A stretch of 64,000 nucleotides of DNA. Origin: Trueperaceae bacterium. GTDB lineage: Bacteria; Deinococcota; Deinococci; Deinococcales; Trueperaceae. Shown here piece after piece: positions 37,363-58,072 of the stretch. Where the stretch lies: contig OZ243913.1 in NCBI GenBank assembly GCA_965213705.1, positions 3,616,001-3,680,000 of the forward strand, given 5' to 3'. A program made the position numbers and the translations under genes. Position 1 is the first letter of the stretch; every line of letters starts with the position of its first letter. Under the pieces are notes generated by a model. The model was not told the origin of the DNA, ran no database searches, and worked only from the letters and a program-made list of their open reading frames with translations.

Positions 37363-37391
37363 CTGACTCTGCTAACAGTTTTGTATAGAAT
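37363..37391 (+). promoter_or_regulatory. Putative sigma70 promoter of the RiPP/LRR operon
   Basis: CTGACT (37363-37368), 17-nt spacer, TAGAAT (37386-37391). Confidence 0.45.
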
Positions 37392-37424
37392 TTTTCACAG
37401 ATGGCAAAGGGGGAGGGCAAGCAA

Positions 37425-37703
37425 ATGTACGGTTCCGCTTCGAGCATCACGGCGACCCAGGAGCAAATTTCCACCGAACTAGACGGTGAAGTCGTCATCC
37501 TCAACACGAACACGGGCAAATACTTTACGCTGGACGGCGTCGGCACCGAGGTGTGGCAGCACCTACAAAACGCGGTCACAGTCTCAGACCTGTGCGCCAA
37601 GGTTGAGGCCCGTTACGACGTTGCGCCGGAACGCTGCCGGGCCGACGTGCTGGCGCTGTTGCAAGACCTCACCGAGGCAGGACTCGTCGAGCGTGTCGAC
37701 TAA
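37425..37703 (+). CDS. PqqD-family RiPP recognition element (lasso B1-like)
   Basis: ELDGEVVILN..TGKYF.LD.VG..VW..L....TV..L...V...YDV..ERC..DV..LL.DL...GLV. GGAGG SD. Confidence 0.92.
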   Translation: MYGSASSITATQEQISTELDGEVVILNTNTGKYFTLDGVGTEVWQHLQNAVTVSDLCAKVEARYDVAPERCRADVLALLQDLTEAGLVERVD

Positions 37704-38121
37704 GCTCGCCAAGATACCCGCCTTTTTCGCGAGGTCGGCTCTGGAGCGCCGGCTTTTGCTCGAGGCCCTGGCCACTCTCTGGCTCGTTCGGCTCGGGTTG
37801 TGGCTGCTGCCTTTCGGCGCGCTGCTGCGCCTCGTCCGGCGTCCGCTGGGAACGTCTAGCGTCGAAGTCGGCCGTTTGACAAAAACATTCACGGTTGTGA
37901 GCCGCTACGTGCCGCGTGCCACTTGCCTTGCCCAAGCCCTCGCCGGTCAACGTCTGTTGGCGGCTCACGGGCATTCCAGCCGCTTGCGAATAGGCGTTCG
38001 CAAAGACGGCGCGCGGTTGGGGGCGCACGCGTGGCTCGAGCATCAGGACCGCGTGGTTGTCGGACTCGTGTCCAACCTGACCGACTACCACCCCTTGTCC
38101 GGCGAGGGAGAACGACCATGA
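37693..38121 (+). CDS. Lasso-peptide B2-type transglutaminase-like leader peptidase
   Basis: TCLAQALA...LRIGVRK...AHAWLE with catalytic Cys/His. GTG start overlaps the PqqD stop. Confidence 0.9.
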   Translation: MSTKLAKIPAFFARSALERRLLLEALATLWLVRLGLWLLPFGALLRLVRRPLGTSSVEVGRLTKTFTVVSRYVPRATCLAQALAGQRLLAAHGHSSRLRIGVRKDGARLGAHAWLEHQDRVVVGLVSNLTDYHPLSGEGERP

Positions 38122-38241
38122 CCTAAAGCCGCGTGAGCTTGCCCGCGCCACGACCGGGCGAGATGGGGAAGAACCGTGGTGGCCTGTTGCCGATAGTTTC
38201 GGCGCGTCCTGGGAAACTTCAAAAACTTTAGGGGAGAGTTT

Positions 38242-39402
38242 ATGAAACGAATTTTGTGGGGCAGCCTGTTAATTTTTATTCTTGCTGCTTGTGGCACGAG
38301 CAGCAATCCAGAAGTGCCGCAAGCGACGAACACCTTTAGTTTTACTGTGGACCCGGCAGCGCGAAGCGTCGAACTCGCTGCAGCACCGGCTGGTGCTCTT
38401 GCCGCTCGAGCCGAAGATGGCAGCCGTGTTTTAGTACCGCGTACGGACTTGAGTTTGAAGTCCTACACCTTTACTTTCTTGCCCGGCAACATACTCGCCA
38501 TCAACGCGAGCTTTAGAAACATTTCGGGTAAAACTTTCAAAAACTTGACGTTCAGCCGCGCTGCAAGCTCAGACAATATAGTCAGTTCGAGCGAGCCGGA
38601 CGTGGTCGAAACTTTGGAGTCTGGCGCGTCCACCAGCACTTTGCGCTTTATGGTGCAACACCAAGGTCAGCGCTTTGCTTACGAAGTAGACGCGAGTGCG
38701 ACGGTTGCAGCCCCAGAGCCTGGTGGAACCGAATGTACCAATCCGGTAAACATCCCCGACGACGTTCTTAGGCGGCAAATTCGGTCGGTGATTGGTAAAT
38801 CTCAAGGCGACATCACTTGCGCTGATATGGCGAGCCTGGAATCGTTGAGCATCGAGTCGCTTTACTCTTACGTTGGTGAGGTTTACAACCTGGAGGGATT
38901 GCAGTTTGCGGTGAACCTGACAGAGCTCCGAGTTAGTTTCACTGAACTTACCGACCTCCGCCCTTTAAGTGGTCTCACAAGCTTGCAGGGTTTGGATGTT
39001 GCTTCCAACAAAATTGATGATATCAGTCCACTACAGGGATTGACGAACCTGACGGGCCTGTCTGTGGCTAACAACAACATAAGCGACATCAGCGCAGTGA
39101 GCGACCTGCTCAGGTTGGAGCGCCTCATCTTGGCCTTCAACCCTATCACCGACATCGGCCCCTTGAGCGGTCTGGAAGACTTACAAATACTTCTCATTTG
39201 TAACAACCGGATCAGCGACCTCGGTCCCCTTATTGCCAACCCAGGTATCGGGAACGGCGACGACTTCATCGATTTGTCCGTGAACCCTTTTGACCTTTCT
39301 CCCGGTTCAAAAGCCTCACAAGACATCGAAACCCTAGAGCGTCGCAACCCGAACATTCCCAACATTTTCGGAACCGAAGCTCAGCCGGGCAGATGTAGCT
39401 AA
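38242..39402 (+). CDS. Internalin-like LRR lipoprotein 1
   Basis: Lipobox LAAC, a shared N-terminal beta domain, cap CTNPVNIPD..LR...GDITCADM, and 22-residue LRRs (L..L.L..N.I.D..PL..L). Confidence 0.9.
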   Translation: MKRILWGSLLIFILAACGTSSNPEVPQATNTFSFTVDPAARSVELAAAPAGALAARAEDGSRVLVPRTDLSLKSYTFTFLPGNILAINASFRNISGKTFKNLTFSRAASSDNIVSSSEPDVVETLESGASTSTLRFMVQHQGQRFAYEVDASATVAAPEPGGTECTNPVNIPDDVLRRQIRSVIGKSQGDITCADMASLESLSIESLYSYVGEVYNLEGLQFAVNLTELRVSFTELTDLRPLSGLTSLQGLDVASNKIDDISPLQGLTNLTGLSVANNNISDISAVSDLLRLERLILAFNPITDIGPLSGLEDLQILLICNNRISDLGPLIANPGIGNGDDFIDLSVNPFDLSPGSKASQDIETLERRNPNIPNIFGTEAQPGRCS

Positions 39403-39412
39403 GGAGCTTGAC

Positions 39413-39571
39413 ATGCATAAACCCGAGCCACAACCCAAGCCCACCGGCGGGCAACCCGTCAACGTGAACAAGCAGCCCTACGAGACACCGGTTTTTAAGG
39501 AACACGGCAGCGCCAAAAGTATCACTTTGCAAACCTTCTTCGGCACCTTCTCGCCGCCCGCCTCGGACTAA
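39413..39571 (+). CDS. RiPP precursor peptide 1 (52 aa)
   Basis: AAGGAG SD. MHKPEPQPKPTGGQPVNVNKQPYETPVFKEHGSAKSITL-QTFFGTFSPPASD. Not in the ORF track. Confidence 0.9.
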   Translation: MHKPEPQPKPTGGQPVNVNKQPYETPVFKEHGSAKSITLQTFFGTFSPPASD

Positions 39572-39638
39572 ACGTTACTTTCCAGCACCCCTACGCAGGG
39601 ATACTTAAAACTCATCGAAAACTTCAGGAGAGAGTCTG

Positions 39639-42209
39639 ATGAAACGGATTTTGTGGGGCAGCTTAATAGTTTTACTCTTGGCAGCTTGCGGAACCAGTAA
39701 GCCAGACCTGCCGCAGGCTACAAATACTTTCAACTTCACCGTCAACCCGGCGGCGCAGAGCGTTGAACTCGCTTCGACACCTGCGGCTGGATTGACCGCT
39801 CAAGCCGAGGACGGTAGCCGCGTTCTCAAACCCGCCACAGAACTGAGCTTGGAGTCTTTCACATTTACTTTCTTGCCAGGTAATTTGCTCGCCATCGACG
39901 CGGTTTTCAAAAACGTCTCAGACCAAACGTTTACCAACCTGACGTTCAGTAGGGCGGCGGGCTCAGACGACATCGTCAGCTCGACTGAGCCGAACGTGGT
40001 CGCAACCTTGGCACCTGGCGCGTCCACCGGCACGCTGCGCTTTACGGTACAGCATAGAGGCCAACCTTTTACCTATGCGGTAGAGGCTAGGGCGACCGTG
40101 GGGATGACGGGAGGGGCTGGCTGTACCGACCCGGTGAACATTCCTGACCGTTTTTTGAAAGAAGGTACACGCATCCAGCTTCAACTTCAAGACAGCGAGA
40201 TTACCTGCGCGGACATGGAGAGGTTGACCGAACTCGACATCTATGAGTTAAGGGACGACATTGATGAAGAATTTCCCGAGCTGGTTGATGTCGGTACTCT
40301 TGAAGGGCTTCAGTTCGCGGTAAACCTCGAGTTCCTGGCGCTGCCTATTAACAGTAACAACAAAGACCTGCTCCAACCTTTGACGGGGCTCACAAGTCTC
40401 ACGAAACTTAGAATCGGCTTGTCCGGTGGGCGTCTTGACAACATCGACATTCCAGAGGAGTTTGAGAATTTTTACAATTTCAGCTACCTCGGCAGTTTGA
40501 TCAACTTGACTGACCTGAGACTATTCGCCTACCAAACGGATTACAGTTGGATAAGCAGTTTGACTAAGTTGACGACTCTCGACCTCAGCTTCAACGAACT
40601 CATAGAAGACTTGACTCCGTTCAGTACCCTGACCAACCTGACCGACTTCAACCTGTCTACCAACTCAGTCAGCGAGTTAGGTCCTTTGGTCTCAAATCCC
40701 GGCATCGGCGAAGGTGACGACCGGCTCGACTTAGACCAGAACTGTTTAGTTCTCACACCGGGGTCGGAAGACCTCGAGGCTGTCAATACCCTGGAGAGCC
40801 GCAACCCGGACGTTCAGAACGTTTTCTTAGGCACCCAAAAGAAGGACGCCTTTTGCGGCAGGACGCCCGACAGCGGCGCTGACCTGAGTCTGTTCGTCAA
40901 CGCTTTTAAACGTGGCGACGACGGCTTCGGCACTGTCGACACCGTGCAGGTCGGGGATGTTGTGGAATTCGTCGTAACCATTGATAACAACGGCCCCGAC
41001 ACGGCGTTCGACATCGTTGTCACAGCTGAGGTTGATAATGCCGCCGGACTCGAGTCATTTACATTTGAGGCCGTTGCTGACTCCAACTGCGACACCGTGC
41101 TAGACGGACCCGAAACCTACAAGCTGGTTTGCACTTTGACAGAAGCGTTGCCCGCTGGTGGTGAGGTTGGTCAAGTAGACCCTAGATTCTTCCTCGGTTT
41201 CGCAGCCGAGGCGGACAACGTCGGAACCATGACCGCGCGGTTTGAGGTATCTTCTAATACTACCAACGACTTCGATTCGTCCAACAACGATGATGTTAAA
41301 GAGATTAGTGTTTTGCCGGAGAACTCCGGCGATGAGTGTACCGACCCCGTGAATATTCCCGACGACACCTTGAGGCAATCCATTCGTGATGCGTTGAACA
41401 AGCCCGAAGGCGACATCACTTGCGCAGACATGGCGAGCTTGACCGAGTTGGTTTCACGCATCGAAAACGAGGTTGACCTCGAACAAATCGGCAACCTGGA
41501 AGGCATTCAGTTCGCAAAGAATCTCGAAACACTTGATTTTTTCGTCTCATGCTGCGAAGTAGTTCCCGACTTCTTCGAACCCCTGAGCGGTCTCGCCAAC
41601 CTGACTACCTTGAAAATTTTCAACATTCGGGACTTTCAGGAACTGGACTTTGACGACCTGGACTTCAGTCCTTTAGGTAGTCTCTCCAACCTTACCGTCC
41701 TCAGCCTTCCAGAAACCCAAGTAAGTAATATCGACTTTTTAAGTGGTTTGACCAACCTGTCCACCCTCGACCTTTCCGACAACGTCATAGACGACTACAG
41801 TCCCTTGAGCAACCTGACCGCCCTGAAAAAGCTGGACCTTTCGTCGGACAGGTTGTACTTAGAGTTTTTCGGAGTTGAGGACATCGGCTTTCTGAGTGGT
41901 CTTACCGCTTTGACCGACCTCGACCTCTCGAGTAACAACGTCAGTGACCTCAGTCCGTTGAGCGGCCTCACCCAGTTGGTCAATCTCGACCTTTCTTCCA
42001 ACCTCGTCACTGACATCAGCCCTTTGGTCATCAATGAGGGAATTGGCGACGGTGATGATGAACTTGTCTTAGTGAGCAACTGCTTGGATACGAGTTCGGG
42101 TTCTCAAGCGCTTGGTGACGCTGACACCCTAGAAAGCCGTAACCCAGATGTTCAGAATGTCTTCCTGGGAATGCAAGGAGATGATGAGGCTTGCAGCCAG
42201 GAAAACTAG
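39639..42209 (+). CDS. Internalin-like LRR lipoprotein 2 (two LRR blocks plus DUF11-like domain)
   Basis: Lipobox LAAC and two capped LRR blocks separated by ADLSL...VTIDNNGPD...SNN (DUF11-like). Confidence 0.9.
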   Translation: MKRILWGSLIVLLLAACGTSKPDLPQATNTFNFTVNPAAQSVELASTPAAGLTAQAEDGSRVLKPATELSLESFTFTFLPGNLLAIDAVFKNVSDQTFTNLTFSRAAGSDDIVSSTEPNVVATLAPGASTGTLRFTVQHRGQPFTYAVEARATVGMTGGAGCTDPVNIPDRFLKEGTRIQLQLQDSEITCADMERLTELDIYELRDDIDEEFPELVDVGTLEGLQFAVNLEFLALPINSNNKDLLQPLTGLTSLTKLRIGLSGGRLDNIDIPEEFENFYNFSYLGSLINLTDLRLFAYQTDYSWISSLTKLTTLDLSFNELIEDLTPFSTLTNLTDFNLSTNSVSELGPLVSNPGIGEGDDRLDLDQNCLVLTPGSEDLEAVNTLESRNPDVQNVFLGTQKKDAFCGRTPDSGADLSLFVNAFKRGDDGFGTVDTVQVGDVVEFVVTIDNNGPDTAFDIVVTAEVDNAAGLESFTFEAVADSNCDTVLDGPETYKLVCTLTEALPAGGEVGQVDPRFFLGFAAEADNVGTMTARFEVSSNTTNDFDSSNNDDVKEISVLPENSGDECTDPVNIPDDTLRQSIRDALNKPEGDITCADMASLTELVSRIENEVDLEQIGNLEGIQFAKNLETLDFFVSCCEVVPDFFEPLSGLANLTTLKIFNIRDFQELDFDDLDFSPLGSLSNLTVLSLPETQVSNIDFLSGLTNLSTLDLSDNVIDDYSPLSNLTALKKLDLSSDRLYLEFFGVEDIGFLSGLTALTDLDLSSNNVSDLSPLSGLTQLVNLDLSSNLVTDISPLVINEGIGDGDDELVLVSNCLDTSSGSQALGDADTLESRNPDVQNVFLGMQGDDEACSQEN

Positions 42210-42284
42210 CTGACACAAGCGTTTCTTGACGCGAGGTTTAGTCAGACAGTAGAACATCAGTCGTAAGTAGTGTAAGGAGTAAGT

Positions 42285-42446
42285 GTGAGCAAATACCTAA
42301 AGTCCCAACCCTTGTTACAAAACGTTGCTGAAAACGAAAAAGGCAAGAAAGTTTACCAAACCCCCATTCTCAAAGAACACGGTAGCGCCAAGGACATCAC
42401 CCTGCAAACCTTCTTCGGCACCTTCTCGCCGCCCGCTTCCGACTAA
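42285..42446 (+). CDS. RiPP precursor peptide 2 (53 aa)
   Basis: AAGGAG SD and GTG start. MSKYLKSQPLLQNVAENEKGKKVYQTPILKEHGSAKDITL-QTFFGTFSPPASD. Not in the ORF track. Confidence 0.9.
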   Translation: MSKYLKSQPLLQNVAENEKGKKVYQTPILKEHGSAKDITLQTFFGTFSPPASD

Positions 42447-42454
42447 TCTCCTCG

Positions 42455-42484
42455 GTCCGGTGGCCCCACGCGGGGCTACCGGAC
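42455..42484 (+). promoter_or_regulatory. Conserved hairpin after precursor 2
   Basis: GTCCGGTGGCCCC-ACGC-GGGGCTACCGGAC, with no U tail. Confidence 0.65.
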
Positions 42485-42552
42485 TCATCAGCGTCGTTAC
42501 CACTCGAGCGCCCTGTTGCTTTACAGTAAGCACAAGACATGAAGGAGGAACT

Positions 42553-44640
42553 GTGAAACGACGATTATGGGGAAGCTTTTTGGTGTTGCTTCTGGCCGCT
42601 TGCAGCTCGAGCCCGGTAGACCTGCCGCAGGCCGGCAATACTTTCAGCTTTGCGGTTGACCCGGCGGCGCAAAGTGTCGACCTCGTCTCGACGCCTGCTG
42701 CGCTGAGTAACCAAGCCGAAGACGGTAGCCGCGTCCTCGTACCGGGTGAAGACTTGAGCCTGGAATCTTACACATTCGTATTTTTACCCGGCAACGTGCT
42801 CACCATCGACGCGGTTTTCAAAAACGTTTCAGACCAAACTTTTACCAACCTGAGGTTCAGCCGCGGGGCGGGCTCGAGCAACGTTGTCAACTCGACCGAG
42901 CCGGACGTGGTCGCAACCCTGGCACCCGGCGCGTCCACCGGTACGCTGCGTTTTGAAGTGCAGCACAGGGGCCAAAGTTTCAGCTACGAGGTCGAAGCTA
43001 CCGCGACCGTGGAGACGGGCGGGGCCGACTGCGCCGACCCGGTAACGATTCCGGACGAGGTTCTGAGGCAAGCCGTCCGGGACGCTCTGAACAAACCCGA
43101 AGGTGACATCACCTGCGCCGACATGGCGAGTTTGTCCGAATTGAGCGTGATAGGTCGCCAGGGCGAGAACGGAATTCCTAACAGGTTCGTCGAAAACTTA
43201 GAGGGTTTGCAGTACGCCGTGAACCTGATGACGCTGCAGCTTATGGGCAACCTTACCCTCAACGACGTCACTCTGCTGAGCACGCTTACCGAACTGACCG
43301 ACCTGGACCTGAGCGGCAACCGCATCGGTGATATCGGTCCGTTGAGCACGCTGGTCAACCTCACGAGGCTCGACCTCGGTTTCAACCTGGATATCGAGGA
43401 CGTCAGCCCGCTGAGCGGACTGACCGGGCTCGAGACCTTGGTCCTCAACATCAACCAGATTACCGACCTGGCCCCGCTGAGCACGCTTACAAACTTGCGC
43501 AGGCTCGACCTCGGCACCAACTTTGTTGCCGACCTTGGTCCTTTAGCAACCAACACAGGCGTCGGAAACGACGACGACCGCATCGACCTGAGGTTCAACT
43601 GTTTGGACGTCTCACCGGGTTCGCAAACGCTCGAGAACGTCGCCGCACTGGAAAGCCGCAACCCGGATGTCCAGAACGTTTTCTTGGGAACGCAAAGAGA
43701 GAGTGACGAGGACTGCGGTCGGCTGCCGCCACCGCCTCCCGCCGAAGAGTGTAGCGACCCGGTGAACATTCCCGACGACACTCTGCGAAAAGAACTGCGT
43801 TTGCAACTTCAACTCCTTGAAGACAGCGAAATCACCTGCTCGGACCTGCTACGTCTAACCGAGTTCAGCTATCAAGATATAGACGTCTTCATCACTAATT
43901 TGGAGGGGTTGCAGTACGCCGTCAACCTGATATCGCTCGAGATTGTCGACGGTTTTCTTACAGACATCAGTCAAGTGAGCGGCCTCACCAAGTTAACAAG
44001 ACTGGATTTGAGCCGCAACGAACAAATTAGGGACACCACACCGCTGAGTGGTTTGGTGAACCTCAGATACCTTGACTTAGCGAGCAATGCCATTGAAGAC
44101 GTCAGTTCACTAAACGGTTTGACCAACCTCGAAATCCTCTACCTGTCCAATAACCCTATCAAGCACATAAGGCCACTTAGCGGTCTGACTAATCTCAGGG
44201 AACTTTACCTAAACGGCGTTGCTGCGCTCGAGGACTACAGCGCTCTACAAGCCCTACCCAACTTGCAAGTTCTCAACCTGTCAAACCGGTTTCTTTTTGA
44301 AGATTTGAAAATAGTCGACATCAGCTCTTTGAAAGGGCTTACCAGCCTGACCCAACTGAATTTGTCCGACAATAAAATCTCCGATATCGGTTCGCTAAGC
44401 AACCTGACAAACTTGAGTAGGCTTGATTTATCGGAAAACTTCGTACGTGACCTTAGCCCCCTTGTGGCAAATACAGGTCTTGGGAACGGCGAAGACAGCA
44501 TCGAGTTGGGGAACAACTGTCTGGACACTTCCCCCAAATCACAGGCTTCACAAGATGTTGCAATTATCGAAGCGAGAAACCCATCAGTTGACAATGTTTT
44601 CGGCTTCGATGTTCCGAAGCTACCGTCACAGTGCAATTAA
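42553..44640 (+). CDS. Internalin-like LRR lipoprotein 3 (two LRR blocks)
   Basis: GTG start after AAGGAGG. MKRRLWGSFLVLLLAAC lipobox and two capped LRR blocks joined by PPPPP. Confidence 0.9.
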   Translation: MKRRLWGSFLVLLLAACSSSPVDLPQAGNTFSFAVDPAAQSVDLVSTPAALSNQAEDGSRVLVPGEDLSLESYTFVFLPGNVLTIDAVFKNVSDQTFTNLRFSRGAGSSNVVNSTEPDVVATLAPGASTGTLRFEVQHRGQSFSYEVEATATVETGGADCADPVTIPDEVLRQAVRDALNKPEGDITCADMASLSELSVIGRQGENGIPNRFVENLEGLQYAVNLMTLQLMGNLTLNDVTLLSTLTELTDLDLSGNRIGDIGPLSTLVNLTRLDLGFNLDIEDVSPLSGLTGLETLVLNINQITDLAPLSTLTNLRRLDLGTNFVADLGPLATNTGVGNDDDRIDLRFNCLDVSPGSQTLENVAALESRNPDVQNVFLGTQRESDEDCGRLPPPPPAEECSDPVNIPDDTLRKELRLQLQLLEDSEITCSDLLRLTEFSYQDIDVFITNLEGLQYAVNLISLEIVDGFLTDISQVSGLTKLTRLDLSRNEQIRDTTPLSGLVNLRYLDLASNAIEDVSSLNGLTNLEILYLSNNPIKHIRPLSGLTNLRELYLNGVAALEDYSALQALPNLQVLNLSNRFLFEDLKIVDISSLKGLTSLTQLNLSDNKISDIGSLSNLTNLSRLDLSENFVRDLSPLVANTGLGNGEDSIELGNNCLDTSPKSQASQDVAIIEARNPSVDNVFGFDVPKLPSQCN

Positions 44641-44650
44641 GGAGATGCGT

Positions 44651-44809
44651 ATGAAAAAACCTGATTTGTTTTTCAAGTCCGCCGACGAACAACTTACCGA
44701 AGTGGATAAGCAACCTTATGTGACGCCGGTTCTCAAAGAACACGGCCACGCCAAAGACGTCACCCTGCAAACCTTTTTCGGTACTTTTTCGCCGCCTGCT
44801 TCGGACTGA
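44651..44809 (+). CDS. RiPP precursor peptide 3 (52 aa)
   Basis: AAGGAG SD overlapping the upstream stop. MKKPDLFFKSADEQLTEVDKQPYVTPVLKEHGHAKDVTL-QTFFGTFSPPASD. Confidence 0.9.
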   Translation: MKKPDLFFKSADEQLTEVDKQPYVTPVLKEHGHAKDVTLQTFFGTFSPPASD

Positions 44810-44817
44810 CCGCCCTG

Positions 44818-44847
44818 TTCCGGTGGCCCCACGCGGGGCCACCGGAA
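44818..44847 (+). promoter_or_regulatory. Conserved hairpin after precursor 3
   Basis: TTCCGGTGGCCCC-ACGC-GGGGCCACCGGAA perfect 13-bp stem, with no U tail. Confidence 0.65.
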
Positions 44848-44929
44848 AGTGTGAAATATCTTAAATACGGTATTGGGCGAGCAGCGTGTTATTTTACGGT
44901 TTTGTGAGGGGGCGATGAGGGAGGATGTC

Positions 44930-46444
44930 GTGAAGCGACTTTTTTGGGGTGGATGGCTCGTTCTTTTGCTGGCGGCTTGTGGTGGGCGCGGCCCCGAGGC
45001 GAAGGTGACGGGCGTGTTTGTTTTGAGCGTGGACCCAGGTACACAGACCGGCGAAGTTTCGGTGGTGGGGACGGGTGCGGCCGAGCGGGACGGCGCTCGC
45101 GCGCTCGTTCCCGGCGAGGACTTAGCAGTCGCGGGCTCAGAGTTCGTTTTTCTGCCCGACAACGTCGTCAGCTTGGAGCTGGCTTTCAAAAATGTCTCGT
45201 CTTGCACCTTTAGGAACTTGGCGTTCAGCCGAGGCGCGGACTCCCGAGCCGTGGTGAGTTCGGTCGAGCCCGCCGTTACGAGTGCCGATTTAGGCGGGGG
45301 CGCGCTCGAGCCCGCCGAAACCACGCGCACGTTAACTTTCGGCGTCACTCACACGGGCAAGCCGTTTGTCTACGCCCTCGCGGCCGAGGCCGACGTGACG
45401 TGCGCCCAAGCGGCGAGCGCCGACCTGCAGACCAACCTGGACGCCCGCTCCGGGAGTACCGTCGCCAAGGGCAAGCCTTTTACCTACTACGCCAACGTCA
45501 GGAACAACGGACCCGACGAGGCTGCGGGCGTCGCGCTCACGGTGACGGTGCCGTTTCCGGTCAGCGTGCCGGACGGCTGCAGCCAGAGCGGGAGCACGCT
45601 GACCTGTGACCTGGGCAAAGTCGGGGCGGACGGGAGCAAGGGCGTGCTCGTCACCGGGACGGCCGCCGAAGCGGGTTCGTACAAGGTGTCCGCCACAGTT
45701 TCCGCAGGCACGCCCGACCCGGACTCGCGCAACAACAGCGTGACAAAAACTTTCGAAGTCTCCGTGCCCACCCAAACCTGCACCGGTCCTGTGCAGATTC
45801 CCGACGCGGCCTTGGAGGCCGCCGTCCGCGCCAAGCTGAAGATTCCGAGCGCCGGCTTGACTTGTACGGACATGGCGAAGTTGACAACCCTCAGGGCCGA
45901 CGCCGACGTTGAGAGCGAAGATGACCCGGACCTTATCAGCAACCTGCAAGGGTTGCAGTTCGCAACCAACCTGACCACCCTAAGCTTAAACGACAACAGC
46001 GTCAGCGACTTGGGTCCGCTGAAGGGCCTTACGAAATTGACGGAGCTTAACTTGATTACCAACCGCATCAGCGACCTGGGTCCGTTGAGCGGCCTGACCG
46101 GCCTGAAACGCCTCACTCTCAACTTCAACGAGGTTACAAACCTGACGCCGCTCAAAGGGCTGACGTCTTTGACAGACCTGCAACTCGCCGTCAACCGAAT
46201 AAGCGACGTGACGGCGTTGAGCGGTTTGACAAACCTCAACATTCTGGACCTTTACTTCAACACCGTCACGAACATCAACCCCCTGGTCGCCAACAGCGGT
46301 GTCGGGAACGCGGACGACTTCGTCGACCTGAGCAACAACTGTCTGGACGCGGCCGGTGTCAACGCCGCACGCAGCCTCGAGGCCAGAAGCCCAAACAACG
46401 TCGTGAAGTTCGGCAGACAGGGGGGCGAGCAGTGCACGCCGTGA
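44930..46444 (+). CDS. LRR lipoprotein 4 with DUF11-like domain
   Basis: GTG start after GGAGG. Lipobox LAAC, the shared N-domain, ADLQ...VRNNGPD...DPDSRNN, then a capped LRR block. Confidence 0.88.
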   Translation: MKRLFWGGWLVLLLAACGGRGPEAKVTGVFVLSVDPGTQTGEVSVVGTGAAERDGARALVPGEDLAVAGSEFVFLPDNVVSLELAFKNVSSCTFRNLAFSRGADSRAVVSSVEPAVTSADLGGGALEPAETTRTLTFGVTHTGKPFVYALAAEADVTCAQAASADLQTNLDARSGSTVAKGKPFTYYANVRNNGPDEAAGVALTVTVPFPVSVPDGCSQSGSTLTCDLGKVGADGSKGVLVTGTAAEAGSYKVSATVSAGTPDPDSRNNSVTKTFEVSVPTQTCTGPVQIPDAALEAAVRAKLKIPSAGLTCTDMAKLTTLRADADVESEDDPDLISNLQGLQFATNLTTLSLNDNSVSDLGPLKGLTKLTELNLITNRISDLGPLSGLTGLKRLTLNFNEVTNLTPLKGLTSLTDLQLAVNRISDVTALSGLTNLNILDLYFNTVTNINPLVANSGVGNADDFVDLSNNCLDAAGVNAARSLEARSPNNVVKFGRQGGEQCTP

Positions 46445-46571
46445 GGGACGCCCCGCCGAGCCGCGCCCCGTCGAGCGCCCGCTCGAGACGTGACGCCCAC
46501 CCTCGCCCCCACACGATTTTGCTACCTATTGCCGCCCGTGCCAAACAGGTAGAGGACTCCAGGACACCGTT

Positions 46572-47594
46572 ATGAAAAAACTGAGTTGTTTAGTTCTCGT
46601 CGTTTTGTTGCTCAGCGCCTGCAGCGCACCCAACTCGCAGCCTACCGAACCGCCGCCGACTGAGCCTGTCGACCAGCCGCAGCCCGTCGCCGACCTGCAA
46701 GTCAACTTCGACGAGCGCTCGGCAGACCCCGTCGCCCAAAACGGTACTTTCGAATACTACGTCAGTGTCAGGAACAACGGCAGCGCCGACGCAGAAGGCG
46801 TGCAGCTTACGGTCACAGTGCCCTTTCCGGTCACCGAAGTCCCGCCAGAATGCGGCTCGAGCGACAGCACGTTAGAGTGTGACCTTGGCAACCTCGACGT
46901 GGGCTTTACCGAAGGGGTTCTCGTTTCAGGCCAAGCCGTTGAAGAAGGAATTTTTCTGGTATCAGCAAATGTTTCTGCCGCCACGAATGACCCTGACCTG
47001 AGTAATAACAGCACCACTGAAAGTTTCGAGGTTTTTCTGCCGACATCGCCTTCGGACTTGCAAGGCCGAATTGCGAATTGGTCTGTAGGTGAAGCTGAGC
47101 TGAGCACGGTGCTTTACGATCAAGCGGAAAAGTCTACTAAAGTCGCTTCGGGGACTGTAGGCGCGGACGGAAAGCTCGACATCTTTTTGGGCAAAAGTGT
47201 ACCGGCCGATGTCCTGTCAAGAATTTCCGCCTGTTCGGGGTTGATGCAGACGAACCCGGGCACGCGCCAAAACACCTTCTCGGCTCTTCAGGTCATGCGG
47301 GGTCAGACAGAGGTAGGCCGGGTGGCCCTCGCCTCGAGCCAAGCGGTTCTAACTGAAGGTCTGCGTAAGGTAGGCGACTACTACGTCCAGCAAACCTACG
47401 CGGACGCCGCCAACACGGTGACGGGGAGCTGCGCGCTCGGCGGGGTGGTCGACGCGGTTTTCAAGTATGACCTCAAACTCAACCAGGGTTGGAACACCGT
47501 CACCTTTAAACTCACCAGAAAAGACGGTGACGCCCAAACCCTCGAGCTGTCGTCGGGTACCCCACAAGGGGCCGCCTGGTTTTTCGCGCCCTAA
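46572..47594 (+). CDS. Lipoprotein with DUF11-like domain (no LRR)
   Basis: Lipobox LSAC and ADLQV...VRNNGS...DPDLSNN, similar to the module in 44930..46444. C-terminal YDLKLNQGWN. Confidence 0.85.
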   Translation: MKKLSCLVLVVLLLSACSAPNSQPTEPPPTEPVDQPQPVADLQVNFDERSADPVAQNGTFEYYVSVRNNGSADAEGVQLTVTVPFPVTEVPPECGSSDSTLECDLGNLDVGFTEGVLVSGQAVEEGIFLVSANVSAATNDPDLSNNSTTESFEVFLPTSPSDLQGRIANWSVGEAELSTVLYDQAEKSTKVASGTVGADGKLDIFLGKSVPADVLSRISACSGLMQTNPGTRQNTFSALQVMRGQTEVGRVALASSQAVLTEGLRKVGDYYVQQTYADAANTVTGSCALGGVVDAVFKYDLKLNQGWNTVTFKLTRKDGDAQTLELSSGTPQGAAWFFAP

Positions 47595-47611
47595 ACGAGG
47601 CCGACGAACAC

Positions 47612-48622
47612 ATGCCCGCCGCCCCCAAGACTGCCGCCCCCAAAACTGCCGGCTTGGTCATGGTGGGACACGTTGCCGTGGGGCTCGAGGGTGACGCTAC
47701 CCACCTCGGCGCCTTGTTGGAGGCGTTGGGGCGGCTGTTCGTGCTGGGTTCGGAGCCTACCGCAAAAGGCGTCACTATTCGGCTGAGCGAGTCGGGGTGG
47801 GCGCTCGGGCCGGGTAAAGAGGTCTACAAAGCCGCTGGCTTGCAGGTTGTCGAGACGGCGTCGGGCTTTTATTTGCGCTGCGGCGCGTCGGTGTTCGAAG
47901 TGTCTCCCGGCGTGACGGGGCGGTTGTACCTCGGGCCGGACTTTTGGGAGCACACCTCGTACGAGCGGCGCGAGTTCTTTTTGCTCGGGCTACTCATGCT
48001 GCTGCGCCCGCTGGGGCTGTACGGTTTGCACGCCTGCGGGCTACGCAAACCTGACGTGTGCGGTGACGCGGGCGGTGACGTGGGCGCGCTGTTGGTGGGC
48101 GGCAGCGGCGCGGGCAAAACGACCACCACCTTGAACCTCATCCGGCACGGTTGGGACTACCTGTCCGACGACGCGGTGTTGCTGCGTGAAGCGGGCGAAA
48201 GAGTGGAAGCCGTAGCCTTTCGCAAAGGGTTTTCTTGCACGCCGAAGACACTTCTCGCTTTTCCCGGTTTGCGCGGCGTGGAAGAGTTCGGTGACCCTTC
48301 GGGCAAGCGGGTCGTGGACTTAGGGGCAACGTTTGGGGGCGGTTTCGTACCGCGTTGCACGCCGCGGTTGCTGCTGTTTCCCCGGCTACACGCGGGACGC
48401 ACGGAGCTTCGGCCGCTACCGAACGCGCTGGCCCTCGTCCGGCTCAGCCAGCAGAGTGGCGGCATCATGACGGCCGCTAGGGGGGACAACGTGGTGTCGC
48501 GCGGCCAGCTCGAGCTGCTCAAACGCCTCGTGCGTCAGGCGCAGAGTTTCGAACTTTTACTGGGCGAGGACGCGCTGCACGATTTGTCTTTGGTGAGTAA
48601 GTTATTGGAGGATTCATTCTAG
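47612..48622 (+). CDS. HPr-kinase-related (RiPP-associated) kinase
   Basis: LHACGL, Walker A GGSGAGKTT, YLSDD. Confidence 0.85.
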   Translation: MPAAPKTAAPKTAGLVMVGHVAVGLEGDATHLGALLEALGRLFVLGSEPTAKGVTIRLSESGWALGPGKEVYKAAGLQVVETASGFYLRCGASVFEVSPGVTGRLYLGPDFWEHTSYERREFFLLGLLMLLRPLGLYGLHACGLRKPDVCGDAGGDVGALLVGGSGAGKTTTTLNLIRHGWDYLSDDAVLLREAGERVEAVAFRKGFSCTPKTLLAFPGLRGVEEFGDPSGKRVVDLGATFGGGFVPRCTPRLLLFPRLHAGRTELRPLPNALALVRLSQQSGGIMTAARGDNVVSRGQLELLKRLVRQAQSFELLLGEDALHDLSLVSKLLEDSF

Positions 48623-49641
48623 TGCGCGTCGTCGTCGAACTCACCAACCGCTGCAACTTGGCGTGCCAGCACTGTTTTTCGGGACGGCACGGCGGCAACG
48701 ACGACCTACCCCTGGCGGTCCTAAACAACATCTTGGCGGGCGCGGCCTCGGTGGGCCTCACCCACCTCACCTTTACCGGCGGCGACCCGACGCTGTACAA
48801 ACACTTCGACACCTTACTGGACCGCGTGACGCAGGAAGGTTACCGCTACAGTTTGGTTACGAACGGCTTTAACTTCGCGCAGGTTTATCCGAAGGTTTTG
48901 AAGTACCGGGGCGGTCTCGAGCAAGTCACCTTCAGCTTAGACGGCGCGACCGACGCCACGCACGCCCGGTTGCGCGGGAGTAAGTCATTTGCTCGAGTCC
49001 TGGCGGCGATGGCGCTGTGCCGCGAGCACGAGGTTCCTTTTACCAACAACATGGTCGTCACCAAGCACAACGCGCACGAACTCGCCGCGGCCGCCGAGCT
49101 TGTGCTGGCGCAAGGCAGCGCGGGCCTGCGCTTTGGGCACCTAATGCACTCGCCACTGACGACGGCCCAGGACTTCGACCTGAGCTTAGACGAGCGCCGC
49201 GGGGTCGAGCGCGAAATCTGGGCGCTGCAAAAACGCTACGCCGCGCGGCTGCCCGTTGCGATGGCTCCCGGCTTCACCACCGCCGACCCGCTGCCCTGCG
49301 CGCCGCTGCACCTGCAAGAGGTCAACGTGGACTACCGCGGCTACCTGACCAAGTGCTGCCATCTTTCGAGCCACGGCGCGGGCGTGGGCACGGACGACGT
49401 GGTGTGCAACCTCGCCGAGACCGACTTTCGTGAGGGCTTTCTCAAGCTGTTTTTGCAAAACGAAGGATTCAAACGCGCTAAGGCCGCGCGGCTTCAGGCC
49501 AGCCCGAGCGAGAGCGATACAAGTCCCTGCTGGTACTGCGCCAACCACTTCAAAAAGGTCGACTGGCTGCGGAACTTTGAGGGGCATCCGTGGCTCGAGC
49601 ACCTGTGGGACGCCGCACCCGCCGAGGACGTGCTCGCGTGA
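48622..49641 (+). CDS. Radical SAM enzyme with Cys-rich C-terminal (SPASM/twitch-like) region
   Basis: ELTNRCNLACQHC, TGGDP, SLDG...H...RG. C-terminal C...G.LTKCC...CNL...CWYC. Confidence 0.92.
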   Translation: MRVVVELTNRCNLACQHCFSGRHGGNDDLPLAVLNNILAGAASVGLTHLTFTGGDPTLYKHFDTLLDRVTQEGYRYSLVTNGFNFAQVYPKVLKYRGGLEQVTFSLDGATDATHARLRGSKSFARVLAAMALCREHEVPFTNNMVVTKHNAHELAAAAELVLAQGSAGLRFGHLMHSPLTTAQDFDLSLDERRGVEREIWALQKRYAARLPVAMAPGFTTADPLPCAPLHLQEVNVDYRGYLTKCCHLSSHGAGVGTDDVVCNLAETDFREGFLKLFLQNEGFKRAKAARLQASPSESDTSPCWYCANHFKKVDWLRNFEGHPWLEHLWDAAPAEDVLA

Positions 49642-50792
49642 CCGTTCCCTCCTCCGCACCAGCAGGATTTCGGCTGCTCGTCGCCTGCTCGAGGGCGCAC
49701 CTGGAACCCGGTAACGCGGCGACGCTCGACGAACTTCTCGGGCTACCCCTGGACTGGGACGAAGTGCTCGCCGAAGCGCGCCGGCACGGCGTCACGCCGC
49801 TGTTGCACCGCCACCTGTCGGGCCGGGCTGAGGTCCCCGCCGCCCCGCTCGCCGAACTCAGCACCTACGCCCGCCGCAACGCCGTTCACAACCTCCTGCT
49901 GTCAAAAGAACTGCTCCGGGTGCTGGGGGAACTTGAGGGTGCGGGTGTGCGCGCCGTGCCCTACAAAGGCCCGACGCTCGCCGTCGCCGCCTACGGCGAC
50001 GTGGCGCTGCGCTCGTTTCAGGACCTCGACGTCATCGTGCGCCCGAACGAGTTCGAACCCGCTCTGGACGCGCTGCAAACGTCTAGCTACGCCCTCGTCG
50101 AGAGTGCCGAGGGCCGGTTTCACGCGACGCTCAAACACGAGGAAACGGGCGTGCTGGTCGAACTCCACCGCGACGTGGTGCGGCGTGAGCGTTTTCCGAC
50201 CGGGCTCGAGCTTACCGCTATGTGGGAAAGGCTCACGGAGGTCGGTCTGCTTGGTCAAAGAGTGCCGAGCTTCGCACCCGAAGACACGCTTTTGCTCCTG
50301 TGCCTCCACGGAGCCAAACACGAGTGGCAAGGGCTCACCTGGCTGTGCGACCTCGCCGAATACCTGCGCGCTCACCCAAGCCTGGACTGGGACCGAGTGC
50401 TGCAGCAAGCCGAGCGGGCACGCGTGACGCGGGTGCTGCTCCTCGGGCTGGCGCTGGCGGAGCATGTTTTGGCCCCGCCGCTGCCCGAAACGGTGCAGTG
50501 TTTGGTAAAGAGTGACCGCAGTTTGCCCGGTTTGCAGGCGACTATCATCGTGAGGTTCTACGAAGACGCAAACCTGCTCGAGCGGGGCGCCCTACCCTAC
50601 CGCCTGCGCGCCGGGATGCGCTCGAGGTTGGAGGACAAGCTGCCCGTTTACAGAAGTTTTGCAGCCCGGCTGCTGCGCCCGAACGAGCAGGACAAACGGG
50701 CCGTCAAGTTGCCGAAACGGCTCGAGCCTTTGTACTACCTCGTCCGGCCGCTGCGCCTGCTAAAGGACGGCGTGGCTCAAAAACGACGCTGA
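49638..50792 (+). CDS. Nucleotidyltransferase family protein (NTP_transf_5-like)
   Basis: YKGP.LA...YG....R...DLDVIV, VELH, LCLHGAKH.W..L.WLCDL. GTGA overlap with the rSAM gene. Confidence 0.88.
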   Translation: MTVPSSAPAGFRLLVACSRAHLEPGNAATLDELLGLPLDWDEVLAEARRHGVTPLLHRHLSGRAEVPAAPLAELSTYARRNAVHNLLLSKELLRVLGELEGAGVRAVPYKGPTLAVAAYGDVALRSFQDLDVIVRPNEFEPALDALQTSSYALVESAEGRFHATLKHEETGVLVELHRDVVRRERFPTGLELTAMWERLTEVGLLGQRVPSFAPEDTLLLLCLHGAKHEWQGLTWLCDLAEYLRAHPSLDWDRVLQQAERARVTRVLLLGLALAEHVLAPPLPETVQCLVKSDRSLPGLQATIIVRFYEDANLLERGALPYRLRAGMRSRLEDKLPVYRSFAARLLRPNEQDKRAVKLPKRLEPLYYLVRPLRLLKDGVAQKRR

Positions 50793-50816: not shown

Positions 50817-52217
50817 TCACTGGTTTGCGCTGACCCGCTCGAGCTTGAGTTCCCGCCTGAGACCCCGCTCGCTCGTACCGAGCGTGCCGTCTTCGATAAA
50901 ACCCGTATAGACTTCGTCGTTGCGGTTGGGTAGCAACGCGTCGATAACCCAAGTGGAGGCTTGGCCGTCTTCAGCCGTCGTTTTAGCCCGGAAGCTGACG
51001 GGGGCGTAGTAGTCGGCGGGTGCCAAATACTTTTGCTCACTACCTCCTTGGACTTCACCTTGTAGGTCGCGAACGGTGCCGGAAGCGTCCGTAACTGTTC
51101 CGCTTACGCCATAGTGCCACTCGTCCAAAAAGGTTGCCTCGAGGTCCAGATAAAGCGTTTCAGGCGCAGGGTCGGGAAGGGTTTGCAAAAGTTGTCCCGT
51201 TTCCAACTCGAACATTTGAACAACGCCGTCGGTGGTGGCCGCGACGACGTAGCGCTCGTCACGACTCAAAACCGGCGGCGTGTACAGCGCGAAAGGTGCC
51301 GAAGGCGCGCGCACTCCGGCGCGGCGTTCGCCCGTGGCGATGTCCAAAAGCTCGAGTTGGGTCGTGTTGGTATCGTAGGGCGGAGCAAACAAAGACGCGG
51401 TTAGTACGGCGGTGCCGTCGCCGCTGAACCCCAGCAGGTAGCTTGCCTCAAATTCGGCTGGTGTATCTAAGTAGGCACCACTGGCGAAATCCCACCTATC
51501 GATGAGGCGTCCGAGCCATTGCACCCACAGTTGCCGCCCGTCCGGCGTAAACAGGGTGCGGTAGAGTGACGAGCCGTTGTATTTGACACTCGTGAATTGG
51601 CGGACGAGCTGCCCCGTTTTGAGGTCCCAGACGAAATAAGTGCTGGTGCTGCCCCCTACCAGCAAGTAGCTGCCGTCGGGGCTGAAAATCAACTCACCAA
51701 CGGCAACGGGGTGCTCGAGCGTATAAAGCAAATCTCCAGTTTTCGCGCTCCACACTTTGACGGTATTTTCATCTCTGTAATACAGAGCGGTTGCAAAGAG
51801 GTCGAAGTTGGGTGAAAGAACGCTCGTGGCACTCAGTCCGTCCTGCTCGACCACATCAAAGTCCAGCAGGGTTTTCCCGGTAGCCAAGTCCACAATTTGA
51901 ACCGCGGGGCCGCTGACCCCCAACCGCGTGCCGTCGGCGCTGAACGAAACTTGACCCGGCCCGAGGTCGATTTTTGTACTCGTGAAAGTCTGCGTGTCGT
52001 AAAGGTCGAACCCGTAAGAGGTCGCCGCTGCAAAGCTCGAGCCGTCCGGGTTGAAGGCCAAGCCGGACACGCTCTCGCCCGTGACTTTGCCGACCTTGGC
52101 CTGCCAGGTGCCGCGCAAGACGCTCGGGTCGCTGGCAAAGTCGACCGATTTGCGCGTGTCTAAGCAGCCGCTGAGCAGCAACGCGAGTGAAACGAGCAAC
52201 AGGTTTCGACGTAACAC
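50817..52217 (-). CDS. WD40/beta-propeller lipoprotein
   Basis: Lipobox LSGC and repeated FSPDG...VWD blades. Confidence 0.85.
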   Translation of the reverse strand: MLRRNLLLVSLALLLSGCLDTRKSVDFASDPSVLRGTWQAKVGKVTGESVSGLAFNPDGSSFAAATSYGFDLYDTQTFTSTKIDLGPGQVSFSADGTRLGVSGPAVQIVDLATGKTLLDFDVVEQDGLSATSVLSPNFDLFATALYYRDENTVKVWSAKTGDLLYTLEHPVAVGELIFSPDGSYLLVGGSTSTYFVWDLKTGQLVRQFTSVKYNGSSLYRTLFTPDGRQLWVQWLGRLIDRWDFASGAYLDTPAEFEASYLLGFSGDGTAVLTASLFAPPYDTNTTQLELLDIATGERRAGVRAPSAPFALYTPPVLSRDERYVVAATTDGVVQMFELETGQLLQTLPDPAPETLYLDLEATFLDEWHYGVSGTVTDASGTVRDLQGEVQGGSEQKYLAPADYYAPVSFRAKTTAEDGQASTWVIDALLPNRNDEVYTGFIEDGTLGTSERGLRRELKLERVSANQ

Positions 52218-52330
52218 GAATCACTGTAGTCGAGGTGAACCGAGAAGTCAAGAACTTGCTTGGGGCGTGTCAAAGCTCCCTCAGCTCGACCGCAAAAGGT
52301 CGAGCCGAGGGAGGATAAGTGTTTGTTGGT

Positions 52331-52843
52331 TTAGCGAAAATTCTCGAGAATAGCTTTGACCGACGGCGAGGTGCTTTGCGGACTCAGTGAAGCTGTCGTC
52401 AACTCGCTGTCGTAGGCAAGATTCAGCGTGAGGCTGCTGCTCTGACCGTCTATAACGAAGATGAGTTTGCCCGTTAGGGTTTTGGCGTCAGTGCCGAAGG
52501 TACCCTCAACCTTGATTTGGTCGCCGACGTCGTCCGTTATGCTGAGAGTCAGCGTCGTACCTTCGACTGAACCCTCCAGGGTGCAACACGTAACCGGGTT
52601 ATCGTACTGGTCTATGTAACCGAAGGTACCGGACACCGCGGTACCCGTTTGGGTGAAGCCGAAACCCACGTACATACCGCTGCCCGAATCCGGGCTGGTG
52701 GCGGTGCCAAACCAAAAATCGTTGTCGAGGTTGATGACGCTGGGGACGGGTTTCGGGGCTGGAGCGGCCGGGCTCGGGCCGGTGGACGAGCACGCCGCCA
52801 ATCCGAAGACGAGGAGGAGCAACACGACGTTTCTTACTTTCAT
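52331..52843 (-). CDS. Hypothetical lipoprotein
   Basis: MKVRNVVLLLLVFGLAAC lipobox, beta-rich body, AAGGAG SD. Confidence 0.8.
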   Translation of the reverse strand: MKVRNVVLLLLVFGLAACSSTGPSPAAPAPKPVPSVINLDNDFWFGTATSPDSGSGMYVGFGFTQTGTAVSGTFGYIDQYDNPVTCCTLEGSVEGTTLTLSITDDVGDQIKVEGTFGTDAKTLTGKLIFVIDGQSSSLTLNLAYDSELTTASLSPQSTSPSVKAILENFR

Positions 52844-52986
52844 ACGAACTCCTTTGGGCATAGTGACCTGCAGGTCTCAACCAGTGTAGGTGACGCGTCC
52901 TTACAAAATCCTTACCCTCGAGCGGCGTGGACAACGCAAAGCGCGGCACGTTTCCAACTCGTCGGGGTGGGTAAAATAAGGGTGTT

Positions 52987-54768: not shown

Positions 54769-54789
54769 AGCGGTCGCGAGGTCCAGCAT

Positions 54790-54831
54790 AAAAACAAAAA
54801 ACGACCAGGTCGAGGAAGCCTCGACCTGGTC
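54790..54831 (-). terminator. Intrinsic terminator between converging uvrC and carbonic anhydrase
   Basis: GACCAGGTCGAGG-AAG-CCTCGACCTGGTC stem with an adjacent A-rich run. Confidence 0.75.
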
Positions 54832-54846
54832 AATAGAGGTACAAGC

Positions 54847-55611: not shown

Positions 55612-55698
55612 CGTTCCTCCCGGTCCAAGCTTAGCCGCAGCGCAGTTTCTAAAGAGCGTCGTGGTTTATAGTCGTGCGCTTAGCCGTGACGTAAAGAG

Positions 55699-55944
55699 TC
55701 AGGGTTGGGCGGACGGCCGCGAGCCGGTTCCGTCAGGCTGCGCCTTCTCACACCCCAACCGCACAAACGGAAACTCAGCTGTGAACGTTTTGCGGCAGGT
55801 GGCGTTGGGAAGCTCTGTCGCCACGCTGAGGCCGCCCCGCCCTGAGCCCTGCACGTCCAAGCGCGTGTTGCCGACCAGGTAAACGAGCAAGCTCAGCAGC
55901 GCAACTGCGAGGACGGCTCCGAGAAAAACGCGGCCCAGCTTCAT
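55699..55944 (-). CDS. Small membrane-anchored hypothetical protein
   Basis: N-terminal TM helix and a Cys pair. Confidence 0.5.
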   Translation of the reverse strand: MKLGRVFLGAVLAVALLSLLVYLVGNTRLDVQGSGRGGLSVATELPNATCRKTFTAEFPFVRLGCEKAQPDGTGSRPSAQP

Positions 55945-56047
55945 GGTTCAAGTCTAGCGTCTCACAGCGCTCCAAGGCCTCTGCCAAAAGGCTGAACGTT
56001 TATAAAGACGAACGTTTGTAAGACCCGGCGGTTCGTAAAAACTGAGG

Positions 56048-57913: not shown

Positions 57914-58072
57914 GCGCTCGTCACTATACCGCGAGGGCTGAAAAACATGAGGAAACAGGGACGAGGCTCAAAAAGGCTTGCCATTTTTTCTGGCAGAGTC
58001 TCAACCGCGGCTGTAACTATCCTCACAGCCGCGTGCGGACGTGAATAACCTTATGCCCAAGCCGTCGAACTT

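Follow-up and report, generated by a model that had tools for sequence, protein, structure and literature searches.

What might lasso-peptide leader machinery be doing in a locus that lacks a lasso cyclase and whose genes run among those of surface lipoproteins? The question is raised by a cluster at 37401-50792 of a 64,000-nucleotide stretch of DNA (the window, analysed here at its full length) from a Trueperaceae bacterium (assembly GCA_965213705.1, contig OZ243913.1, positions 3,616,001 to 3,680,000 of the forward strand). It carries genes typical of a ribosomally synthesized peptide that is modified post-translationally (RiPP) together with a radical S-adenosylmethionine (SAM) enzyme. We find that the cluster is a member of a widespread family of cyclase-less peptide-modifying cassettes. 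On balance, we consider it somewhat probable that this cassette makes a short non-lasso peptide with the predicted core QTFFGTFSPPASD, probably phosphorylated and modified by the radical SAM enzyme, which likely binds an unnamed domain of exported proteins. This reading builds on the gene content, the lack of a cyclase match, a conserved motif, a core under purifying selection, a homologous domain and the pairing of genes.

Organization of the cluster

Ten protein genes and three precursor genes, all on the + strand, follow each other in the order RiPP recognition element (RRE, also called B1), B2 peptidase, three lipoprotein-precursor units, a fourth lipoprotein, a DUF11 lipoprotein, an HPrK-like kinase, the radical SAM enzyme and an NTP_transf_5 protein. 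A first-pass annotation of this DNA had described this order in a single co-directional 13.4-kb run, and checks of open reading frames (ORFs), families and coordinates bore it out. The translational overlaps that it reported can be read in the sequence: the B1 stop and the B2 GTG start overlap by about 11 nt, the kinase and radical SAM genes share TAGTG, and the radical SAM and nucleotidyltransferase genes share GTGA. The features are as follows (LRR, leucine-rich repeat).

37401..37703, +, stand-alone RRE (lasso B1/PqqD-type); PF05402 E 5.5e-22; NF033536 72.4 bits against a cut-off of 80
37693..38121, +, lasso B2-type cysteine leader peptidase; PF13471; NF033537 81.7 bits, above the cut-off of 33
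38242..39402, +, lipoprotein 1, 386 residues: lipobox, unnamed beta-sandwich partner domain (about 38326-38715), LRRs
39413..39571, +, precursor 1, 52 residues, predicted core QTFFGTFSPPASD
39639..42209, +, lipoprotein 2, 856 residues: partner domain, LRR, DUF11, LRR
42285..42446, +, precursor 2, 53 residues, same core as precursor 1
42553..44640, +, lipoprotein 3, 695 residues: partner domain and two LRR blocks
44651..44809, +, precursor 3, 52 residues, same core as precursor 1; weak match to the lasso leader family NF033521 (E 0.0017, 18.3 bits against a cut-off of 19)
44930..46444, +, lipoprotein 4, 504 residues: partner domain, DUF11, LRR; no precursor downstream
46572..47594, +, DUF11 lipoprotein
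47612..48622, +, HPrK-like P-loop kinase; Hpr_kinase_C E 1.1e-6, below family cut-offs
48622..49641, +, radical SAM enzyme with CxxxCxxC and a twitch-like auxiliary domain; Radical_SAM E 1.7e-25
49638..50792, +, NTP_transf_5 nucleotidyltransferase-like protein (DxD kept); PF14907 E 6.1e-61

The likely starts at 42553, 44930 and 49638 differ from those of the longest ORFs, and an alternative start of the RRE is possible at ATG 37425. All five lipoproteins carry an L-A/S-A-C lipobox; lipoproteins 1-4 match LRR_4, and two of these four also match DUF11. The precursor genes begin 10-75 bp past the preceding lipoprotein stop. In this single-contig, 98% complete genome, the RRE, B2 peptidase, kinase, nucleotidyltransferase and three precursors are each confined to the cluster.

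Leader machinery without a lasso cyclase

Two lasso features are present, namely a B1 RRE with a B2 cysteine peptidase, whose catalytic-type Cys and His are at least 90% conserved (36 rows), and a YxxPxL leader with Thr at position -2. Two others were not found, namely an Asn-synthetase-like macrolactam cyclase and an Asp or Glu at core positions 7-9. Family scans of 37401-50792 agreed with the first-pass annotation in detecting neither a cyclase nor a transporter, and the search of the whole genome for a remote lasso cyclase also came back empty, with no matches to NF033535 and a sole, partial PF00733 match to GMP synthase. No cyclase match was found in two relatives, G290 and G199. A Pfam scan of 123 of the 159 neighbouring ORFs from 38 loci of the family (the 36 omitted were mostly short or doubtful frames, and long ORFs were cut at 700 residues) gave no Asn_synthase match, and transporter genes occurred in only 3 of the 38 loci (L141, and L124 and L126, which seem to be one locus). 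Judging from these profiles, lasso leader machinery is reused here without a lasso.

Some loci hold further genes beside this machinery. A second pair of RRE and B2 genes is present in L202 and L200 of the related genomes G147 and G184, respectively; in G147, another HprK-like kinase and nucleotidyltransferase are encoded close by, and no precursor was detected there. L007, L086, L092, L101, L132 and L135 (6 of 38 loci) encode, downstream of the RRE, a GNAT acetyltransferase that could cap a freed N-terminus; there is none in this window. Ten non-Trueperaceae loci (L092, at 1097-1675, L101, L111, L112, L115, L128, L091, L095, L124 and L156) encode a small secreted protein of about 150-210 residues upstream of the B2 peptidase or precursor; one of these proteins weakly matches secretin N-domains (PilQ E 0.009, SctC E 0.046). 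This recurring protein may be an additional component, perhaps one for export or anchoring.

A conserved core motif under purifying selection

The three precursors diverge at their N-termini and end in an identical 13-residue core, QTFFGTFSPPASD, behind a YxTPx[L/F]KEHG...T-L leader; each gene is preceded by a Shine-Dalgarno-like site. The core begins with Gln and contains no Cys, Trp or Lys. Across a 37-row alignment, the leader is of the YxxPxL type with Thr at -2, its P, G and T being invariant. The core consensus is FFGxF[S/T]P: of 44 anchored sequences from 48 distinct precursors, the fixed positions are occupied as F 44, F 43, G 39, F 43, S/T 43 and P 42, and among the 119 of 120 database matches listed as F 119, F 119, G 114, F 119, S/T 116 and P 114. 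The precursor profile matches 1206 proteins, a count that includes leader-driven matches.

Core length varies from 7 to 23 residues, many cores having only 7-9; the tail past the motif is variable or absent, and the cleavage site and FF are separated by 0-4 residues. This spacing, together with an acid at core positions 7-9 in only 4 of 46 cores, argues against a macrolactam. Codon differences within the core were 44 synonymous versus 0 non-synonymous among five genes and 103 versus 12 among eight genes, all 12 at one G/T site (pairs are not independent in either set); the core is under purifying selection. A fixed motif, variable spacing and almost entirely synonymous change in the core point to a modification tied to the motif rather than to the N-terminus. 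Behind precursors 2 and 3 there is a near-identical GC-rich inverted repeat (42450-42490 and 44815-44850), possibly an RNA-stabilising hairpin.

The cassette in other bacteria

We examined 95 loci (6 from genome contigs, 80 from metagenomes and 9 from genome regions; 90 after removing five duplicates), 51 of which match the precursor profile. Among the 64 loci that extend at least 0.5 kb upstream, 62 carry the kinase gene beside the radical SAM gene. Where at least 2.5 kb of upstream sequence was available, 28 of 33 loci contain a precursor, and three of the five remaining cases have one elsewhere in the genome or assembly (G246, G234 and G184). Thus, the radical SAM enzyme co-occurs with FFGxF[S/T]P peptides in many bacteria, and one part of the reading in the first-pass annotation, a RiPP cassette with lasso-type leader handling and no cyclase, is upheld: radical SAM enzyme, kinase and precursor travel together, and no remote cyclase matched. 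Eighteen loci extend at least 2.5 kb in both directions; all 18 have the kinase, 14 the precursor, 14 the nucleotidyltransferase, 13 the RRE and 9 the B2 peptidase.

The closest relative is G290, a genome of the same genus. At E<=1e-30, the radical SAM enzyme has 267 homologues, of which those with a name come from Trueperaceae, Anaerolineae, Caldilineaceae and Novipirellula; 2 of 401 genomes in a Chloroflexota sample were positive. A contig scan based on the radical SAM enzyme returned 80 loci with only 6 true orthologues, and the other 74 became controls. Genome G378, which has a distant radical SAM enzyme, gave no precursor or domain match. Small genes of the toxin-antitoxin type (TumE, HepT-like) interrupt the row of precursor, kinase and radical SAM genes in L091, L097, L098 and L100.

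An unnamed domain shared by the exported proteins

The first-pass annotation had tied the peptide to surface LRR proteins. The tie to surface proteins is borne out by gene pairing (see below); the LRR part is not, and LRRs were rejected as the conserved partner: relatives swap the cargo, and the shared part is an unnamed beta-sandwich domain. All four LRR lipoproteins open with this domain of about 130 residues (predicted beta-sandwich, pLDDT 87). Behind it, relatives carry Receptor-L, Big_7, SpaA/DUF11/GEVED or unannotated sequences, and beta-propellers and other cargo also occur among relatives; LRRs are interchangeable cargo. Outside Trueperaceae, the large upstream secreted proteins share a C-terminal domain of about 110 residues, and homology links the N-terminal form to the C-terminal one (hhalign probability 95.1%, E 3.1e-8, 98 columns).

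The domain, with 1603 representatives after clustering at 50% identity, has no meaningful match among the Pfam and NCBIfam families. An ESM Atlas search gave only matches below 0.9 (unnamed clusters at 0.86-0.89, CBM-like at 0.76-0.81), and Foldseek found nothing for the model at E<=0.001. The top structural match is WSSV VP37 (Z 9.4). The model also resembles adaptin ears (Z 6-7, root-mean-square deviation (rmsd) 3.4-4.4, about 100 residues aligned), with Z values within the range of generic immunoglobulin-like sandwiches. GAE/adaptin-ear domains bind DFGGF and FGxLV in the available text of PMC13581114, and the peptide described here carries FGxF; these domains are eukaryotic and cytosolic, and the weak likeness is an analogy and a lead only.

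Precursor genes follow domain genes

Among 128 Trueperaceae genomes, the radical SAM enzyme was found in 9, the domain in 11 and the precursor in 8, and 117 have neither radical SAM enzyme nor domain. All nine radical SAM genomes carry the domain; the carriers span four genera of unknown independence. Fifteen of 18 Trueperaceae precursor genes follow a domain gene (13 stand directly behind an intact one, and 2 in G199 behind one that is split or broken by an insertion sequence), and the other three follow surface-protein genes truncated by contig ends. Six Trueperaceae precursors lie 0.4-3.4 Mb from the radical SAM gene. In G147 and G184 the cassette is split, with kinase, radical SAM enzyme and RRE at one site, RRE and B2 pairs elsewhere, and three precursors each; five of these six precursors are 0.4-3.4 Mb from the radical SAM gene and all six stand directly behind a domain-bearing lipoprotein gene. 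One G199 precursor, behind a split domain gene, is 0.9 Mb away. That precursor genes are scattered together with single domain genes, far from those of the enzymes, is the best genetic evidence here for a peptide in the service of the exported proteins. Outside Trueperaceae, 20 loci have a precursor and at least 1 kb of upstream sequence, and 15 of them encode the domain upstream; counted at any position, it is present in 20 of 79 loci. The 74 control loci around distant radical SAM genes (1.18 Mb) contained no match to it.

Domains that lack a precursor fall mostly in separate clades of the domain tree (34 rows, partial domains under 95 residues left out), five in a supported clade (100/99) and two as a pair, much of the tree being unresolved. 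In both G147 and G184, such a domain lipoprotein is followed by a subtilisin-like (S8-type) lipoprotein (L248 and L250). Several domain lipoprotein genes of G199 (L252, L253 and L254) are split or interrupted by apparent insertion sequences, and one of them keeps an intact precursor behind it.

Putative modifying enzymes

The radical SAM enzyme reaches no NCBIfam family at cut-off (best of the matches listed, ScmE, 85.7/400; ScmF, 56.5/400). Beyond CxxxCxxC it has five near-invariant C-terminal Cys residues (C226, C245, C246, C303 and C306), which would suffice for one auxiliary cluster and one spare Cys. The neighbours of its AlphaFold model (pLDDT 91.6) by VIA are SuiB (Z 25.4, rmsd 3.4, 293 residues aligned), SkfB (24.0), BlsE (23.9), anSME (23.0), ChlB (21.4) and EpeE (19.5); BlsE is the top match by Foldseek and ties for third by VIA. 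SuiB, SkfB and EpeE share its fold, and it is 14-22% identical to SuiB, SkfB, BlsE, anSME and EpeE. A profile of the C-terminal domain matched no radical SAM enzyme in the PDB even at E 10, EpeE included.

SuiB forms an aromatic cross-link, and in triceptide/cyclophane RiPPs a SPASM enzyme makes a C-C cross-link in an aromatic-X-X motif. The Phe-rich core is compatible with triceptide/cyclophane chemistry; ChlB does not come first among the structural matches. For the reaction on the core we favour, at close to an even bet, a C-C cross-link to a Phe ring, given that aromatic residues are kept at three positions and that the enzyme closest in structure cross-links aromatic residues. Epimerisation at C-alpha using the spare Cys is unlikely, and some other reaction is quite possible. 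EpeE has one auxiliary cluster and a catalytic Cys223 that donates a hydrogen atom, as described in the available text of PMC13012085, and the enzyme described here likewise has one Cys over the four needed for a cluster. A reading of it as EpeE-type, suggested by the cysteine pattern, is not borne out by sequence, the C-terminal domain having no sequence match to EpeE; the Z score is also below that of SuiB. The GxxGxGKT and SDD motifs of the kinase are conserved across relatives, and the DUF11 lipoprotein's C-terminal portion reappears in several Trueperaceae loci, immediately upstream of the kinase.

Comparison with known systems

The SynChlorMet cassette consists of ScmD, ScmE and ScmF and contains two radical SAM enzymes. 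It shares a PqqD-type RRE and a radical SAM/SPASM enzyme with this cluster, ScmE being the best NCBIfam match. The scores fall far short of the curated cut-offs (ScmE 85.7/400, ScmF 56.5/400, ScmD 40.3/100), and here there is one radical SAM enzyme, accompanied by B2 and nucleotidyltransferase. Sactipeptides and ranthipeptides require a Cys donor in the core, which is absent from the 46 cores listed. The paeninodin and pseudomycoidin clusters, as presented in the available text of PMC9266682, share split B1/B2, a Thr(-2) leader, the kinase and an NTP_transf_5 protein; in contrast to them, this cluster has no macrolactam cyclase, ring acceptor or transporter and has a radical SAM enzyme and a secreted-protein domain.

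The pathway of linear polyphosphorylated peptides (LPP; Popov et al. 2026, PMC13381572) is also cyclase-less, with a discrete RRE, YxxP-type leader, HprK-like kinase, NTP transferase and a link to cell-surface loci. According to its main text, in which a radical SAM enzyme is not mentioned, it has a SipW-like signal peptidase, an MsbA-like exporter and a 45-residue core phosphorylated at Ser3. Neither an SpI/SipW-like peptidase nor an MsbA-like exporter was found in our cluster, which has instead a B2 peptidase, a radical SAM enzyme, FFGxF[S/T]P cores of 7-23 residues and the partner domain; nor does the precursor leader alignment fit the LPP leader consensus given there, YxxPxVLxHQxIxFETxxS. 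The cluster thus appears to resemble paeninodin and LPP systems in leader handling and probable phosphorylation and to fall outside the lasso, LPP, SynChlorMet and sacti/ranthipeptide groups. It represents an undescribed radical SAM RiPP family tied to an unnamed secreted-protein domain. A literature search found no description of this family and 0 papers with the motif strings; subscription papers and supplements lay outside its scope, and a listing in the supplement of a sequence similarity network study is possible. RRE-Finder reports about 300 lasso-type RREs beside radical SAM enzymes in aggregate, without a description of the family in the available text (PMC7470986), and the same is true of the available texts of PMC12710340, PMC10885120 and PMC8326336.

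Surroundings of the cluster

The lipoprotein-precursor repeat region (38200-44800) has a GC content of 52.8%, while the flanks are at about 61%. G290 has two lipoprotein-precursor units, not three, at this site, which lies between the 2-oxo-acid dehydrogenase operon and uvrC. A promoter and terminator scan of the locus gave matches at or below chance, and the promoter-like site at 37363 is no more than chance would give (3 such sites against 2.2 expected). On the - strand at 50817-52861, two lipoprotein-like genes (a WD40 beta-propeller of 466 residues and a protein of 176 residues with no assigned family) converge on the cluster end; they are not at the corresponding position in G290. The 31 other ORFs scanned in the flanks (1652-37282 and 52987-63982) are mostly housekeeping genes and include polA, ilvD, moaA, purA, citrate synthase, E1/E2 dehydrogenase, uvrC, murA, rhlE and pfkA; the second radical SAM enzyme of the window, at 21275-22591, is MoaA.

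Discussion

By analogy with known families, the RRE would bind the YxxPxL/F leader, and the kinase would phosphorylate the F-S-P serine, much as LppK and PsmK act on theirs. The radical SAM enzyme would modify the FFGxF motif, a step that we can only guess at, and the nucleotidyltransferase might add a nucleotidyl or hexose group to the phosphate. The B2 peptidase would cut two residues past the invariant Thr; the peptide would reach the surface and may dock on the domain as a ligand, anchor or assembly factor for variable cargo. There are precedents in the available texts of the respective sources: B2-type cleavage occurs after Thr-X (PMC10885120), the HprK-like LppK phosphorylates Ser in a cyclase-less pathway (PMC13381572) and PsmN decorates phospho-Ser with hexoses (PMC9266682); for LppN, the study that describes it detected no product (PMC13381572). 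More tentatively, this could be peptide-dependent display or assembly, in which one modular domain sits at either end of diverse secreted proteins and a co-expressed, radical SAM-modified phosphopeptide docks on it as a dedicated ligand or anchor.

Several observations weigh against binding of a modified peptide to the domain. Five of the 20 non-Trueperaceae loci have no domain upstream; G206 (97% complete) has two domain genes and no precursor or radical SAM match, in G706 (67% complete) a domain gene likewise stands alone, and further domain genes in G147, G184 and G199 have no precursor behind them. The domain profiles were seeded from cassette neighbours, which makes the counts circular in part, and there are several near-duplicates or kin among the loci. 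The nucleotidyltransferase is missing from 4 and the B2 peptidase from 9 of the 18 long loci, some of which is explained by split clusters. With an identity of at most 22% to any solved enzyme, the radical SAM chemistry is a guess. Finally, topology is a difficulty for a meeting of peptide and lipoprotein: the lipoproteins have lipoboxes, while the enzymes have no evident signal peptide and no exporter is conserved for a peptide modified in the cytoplasm.

Some of these points suit a different explanation, in which the same modified peptide is a signal or diffusible product only co-expressed with the surface proteins, its genes being operon partners or hitch-hikers that make no contact. Domain genes without precursor, the genome with a domain and no cassette match and the lack of a conserved exporter are what it would lead one to expect; the LPP and paeninodin clusters, which are related, are found together with capsule loci and have no known binding partner in the available text of PMC13381572, and precursor genes starting so close (10-75 bp) to a lipoprotein stop are easily copied along. 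We regard it as somewhat unlikely, as the pairing holds for N- and C-terminal positions of the domain and on unrelated cargo, and dispersed precursor copies keep the core while synonymous sites vary. A linear phospho- or phosphoglycopeptide of the LPP type, with the radical SAM enzyme acting on a sugar or nucleotide added by the nucleotidyltransferase (BlsE/DesII-like) and not on the Phe motif, would fit the top Foldseek match to BlsE, tied third by VIA, and a kinase-nucleotidyltransferase pair like that of LPP and pseudomycoidin. It is improbable: it leaves three near-invariant Phe and the Gly unaccounted for, the radical SAM enzyme and kinase stay together in the 4 of 18 long loci that lack the nucleotidyltransferase, and SuiB and SkfB score as high as BlsE or higher. 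An ordinary lasso peptide finished by a remote cyclase is largely refuted. While B2 scores above the lasso cut-off, the leader is of the YxxPxL type with an invariant Thr(-2), and a full-length Asn_synthase-family gene is found elsewhere in two related genomes (G267 and G184), there is no cyclase match in this genome, G290 or G199, the core starts with Gln and has no Asp or Glu at 7-9, and many family cores have only 7-9 residues. Our preferred reading is a modified peptide that probably binds the domain.

The novelty of the system would lie in the pairing of peptide and domain, which is genetic; the biosynthetic half alone seems to follow known RiPP logic. Function is unknown even for paeninodins and LPPs, according to the available text of PMC13381572, and a peptide gene that trails one secreted-protein domain around the chromosome is an unusually specific clue to it. 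The radical SAM family is undescribed and its substrate motif is very small and well defined, so that new radical SAM chemistry becomes directly testable. If the peptide does dock on the domain, this RiPP would be a structural part of the cell surface, and not an antibiotic or a signal.

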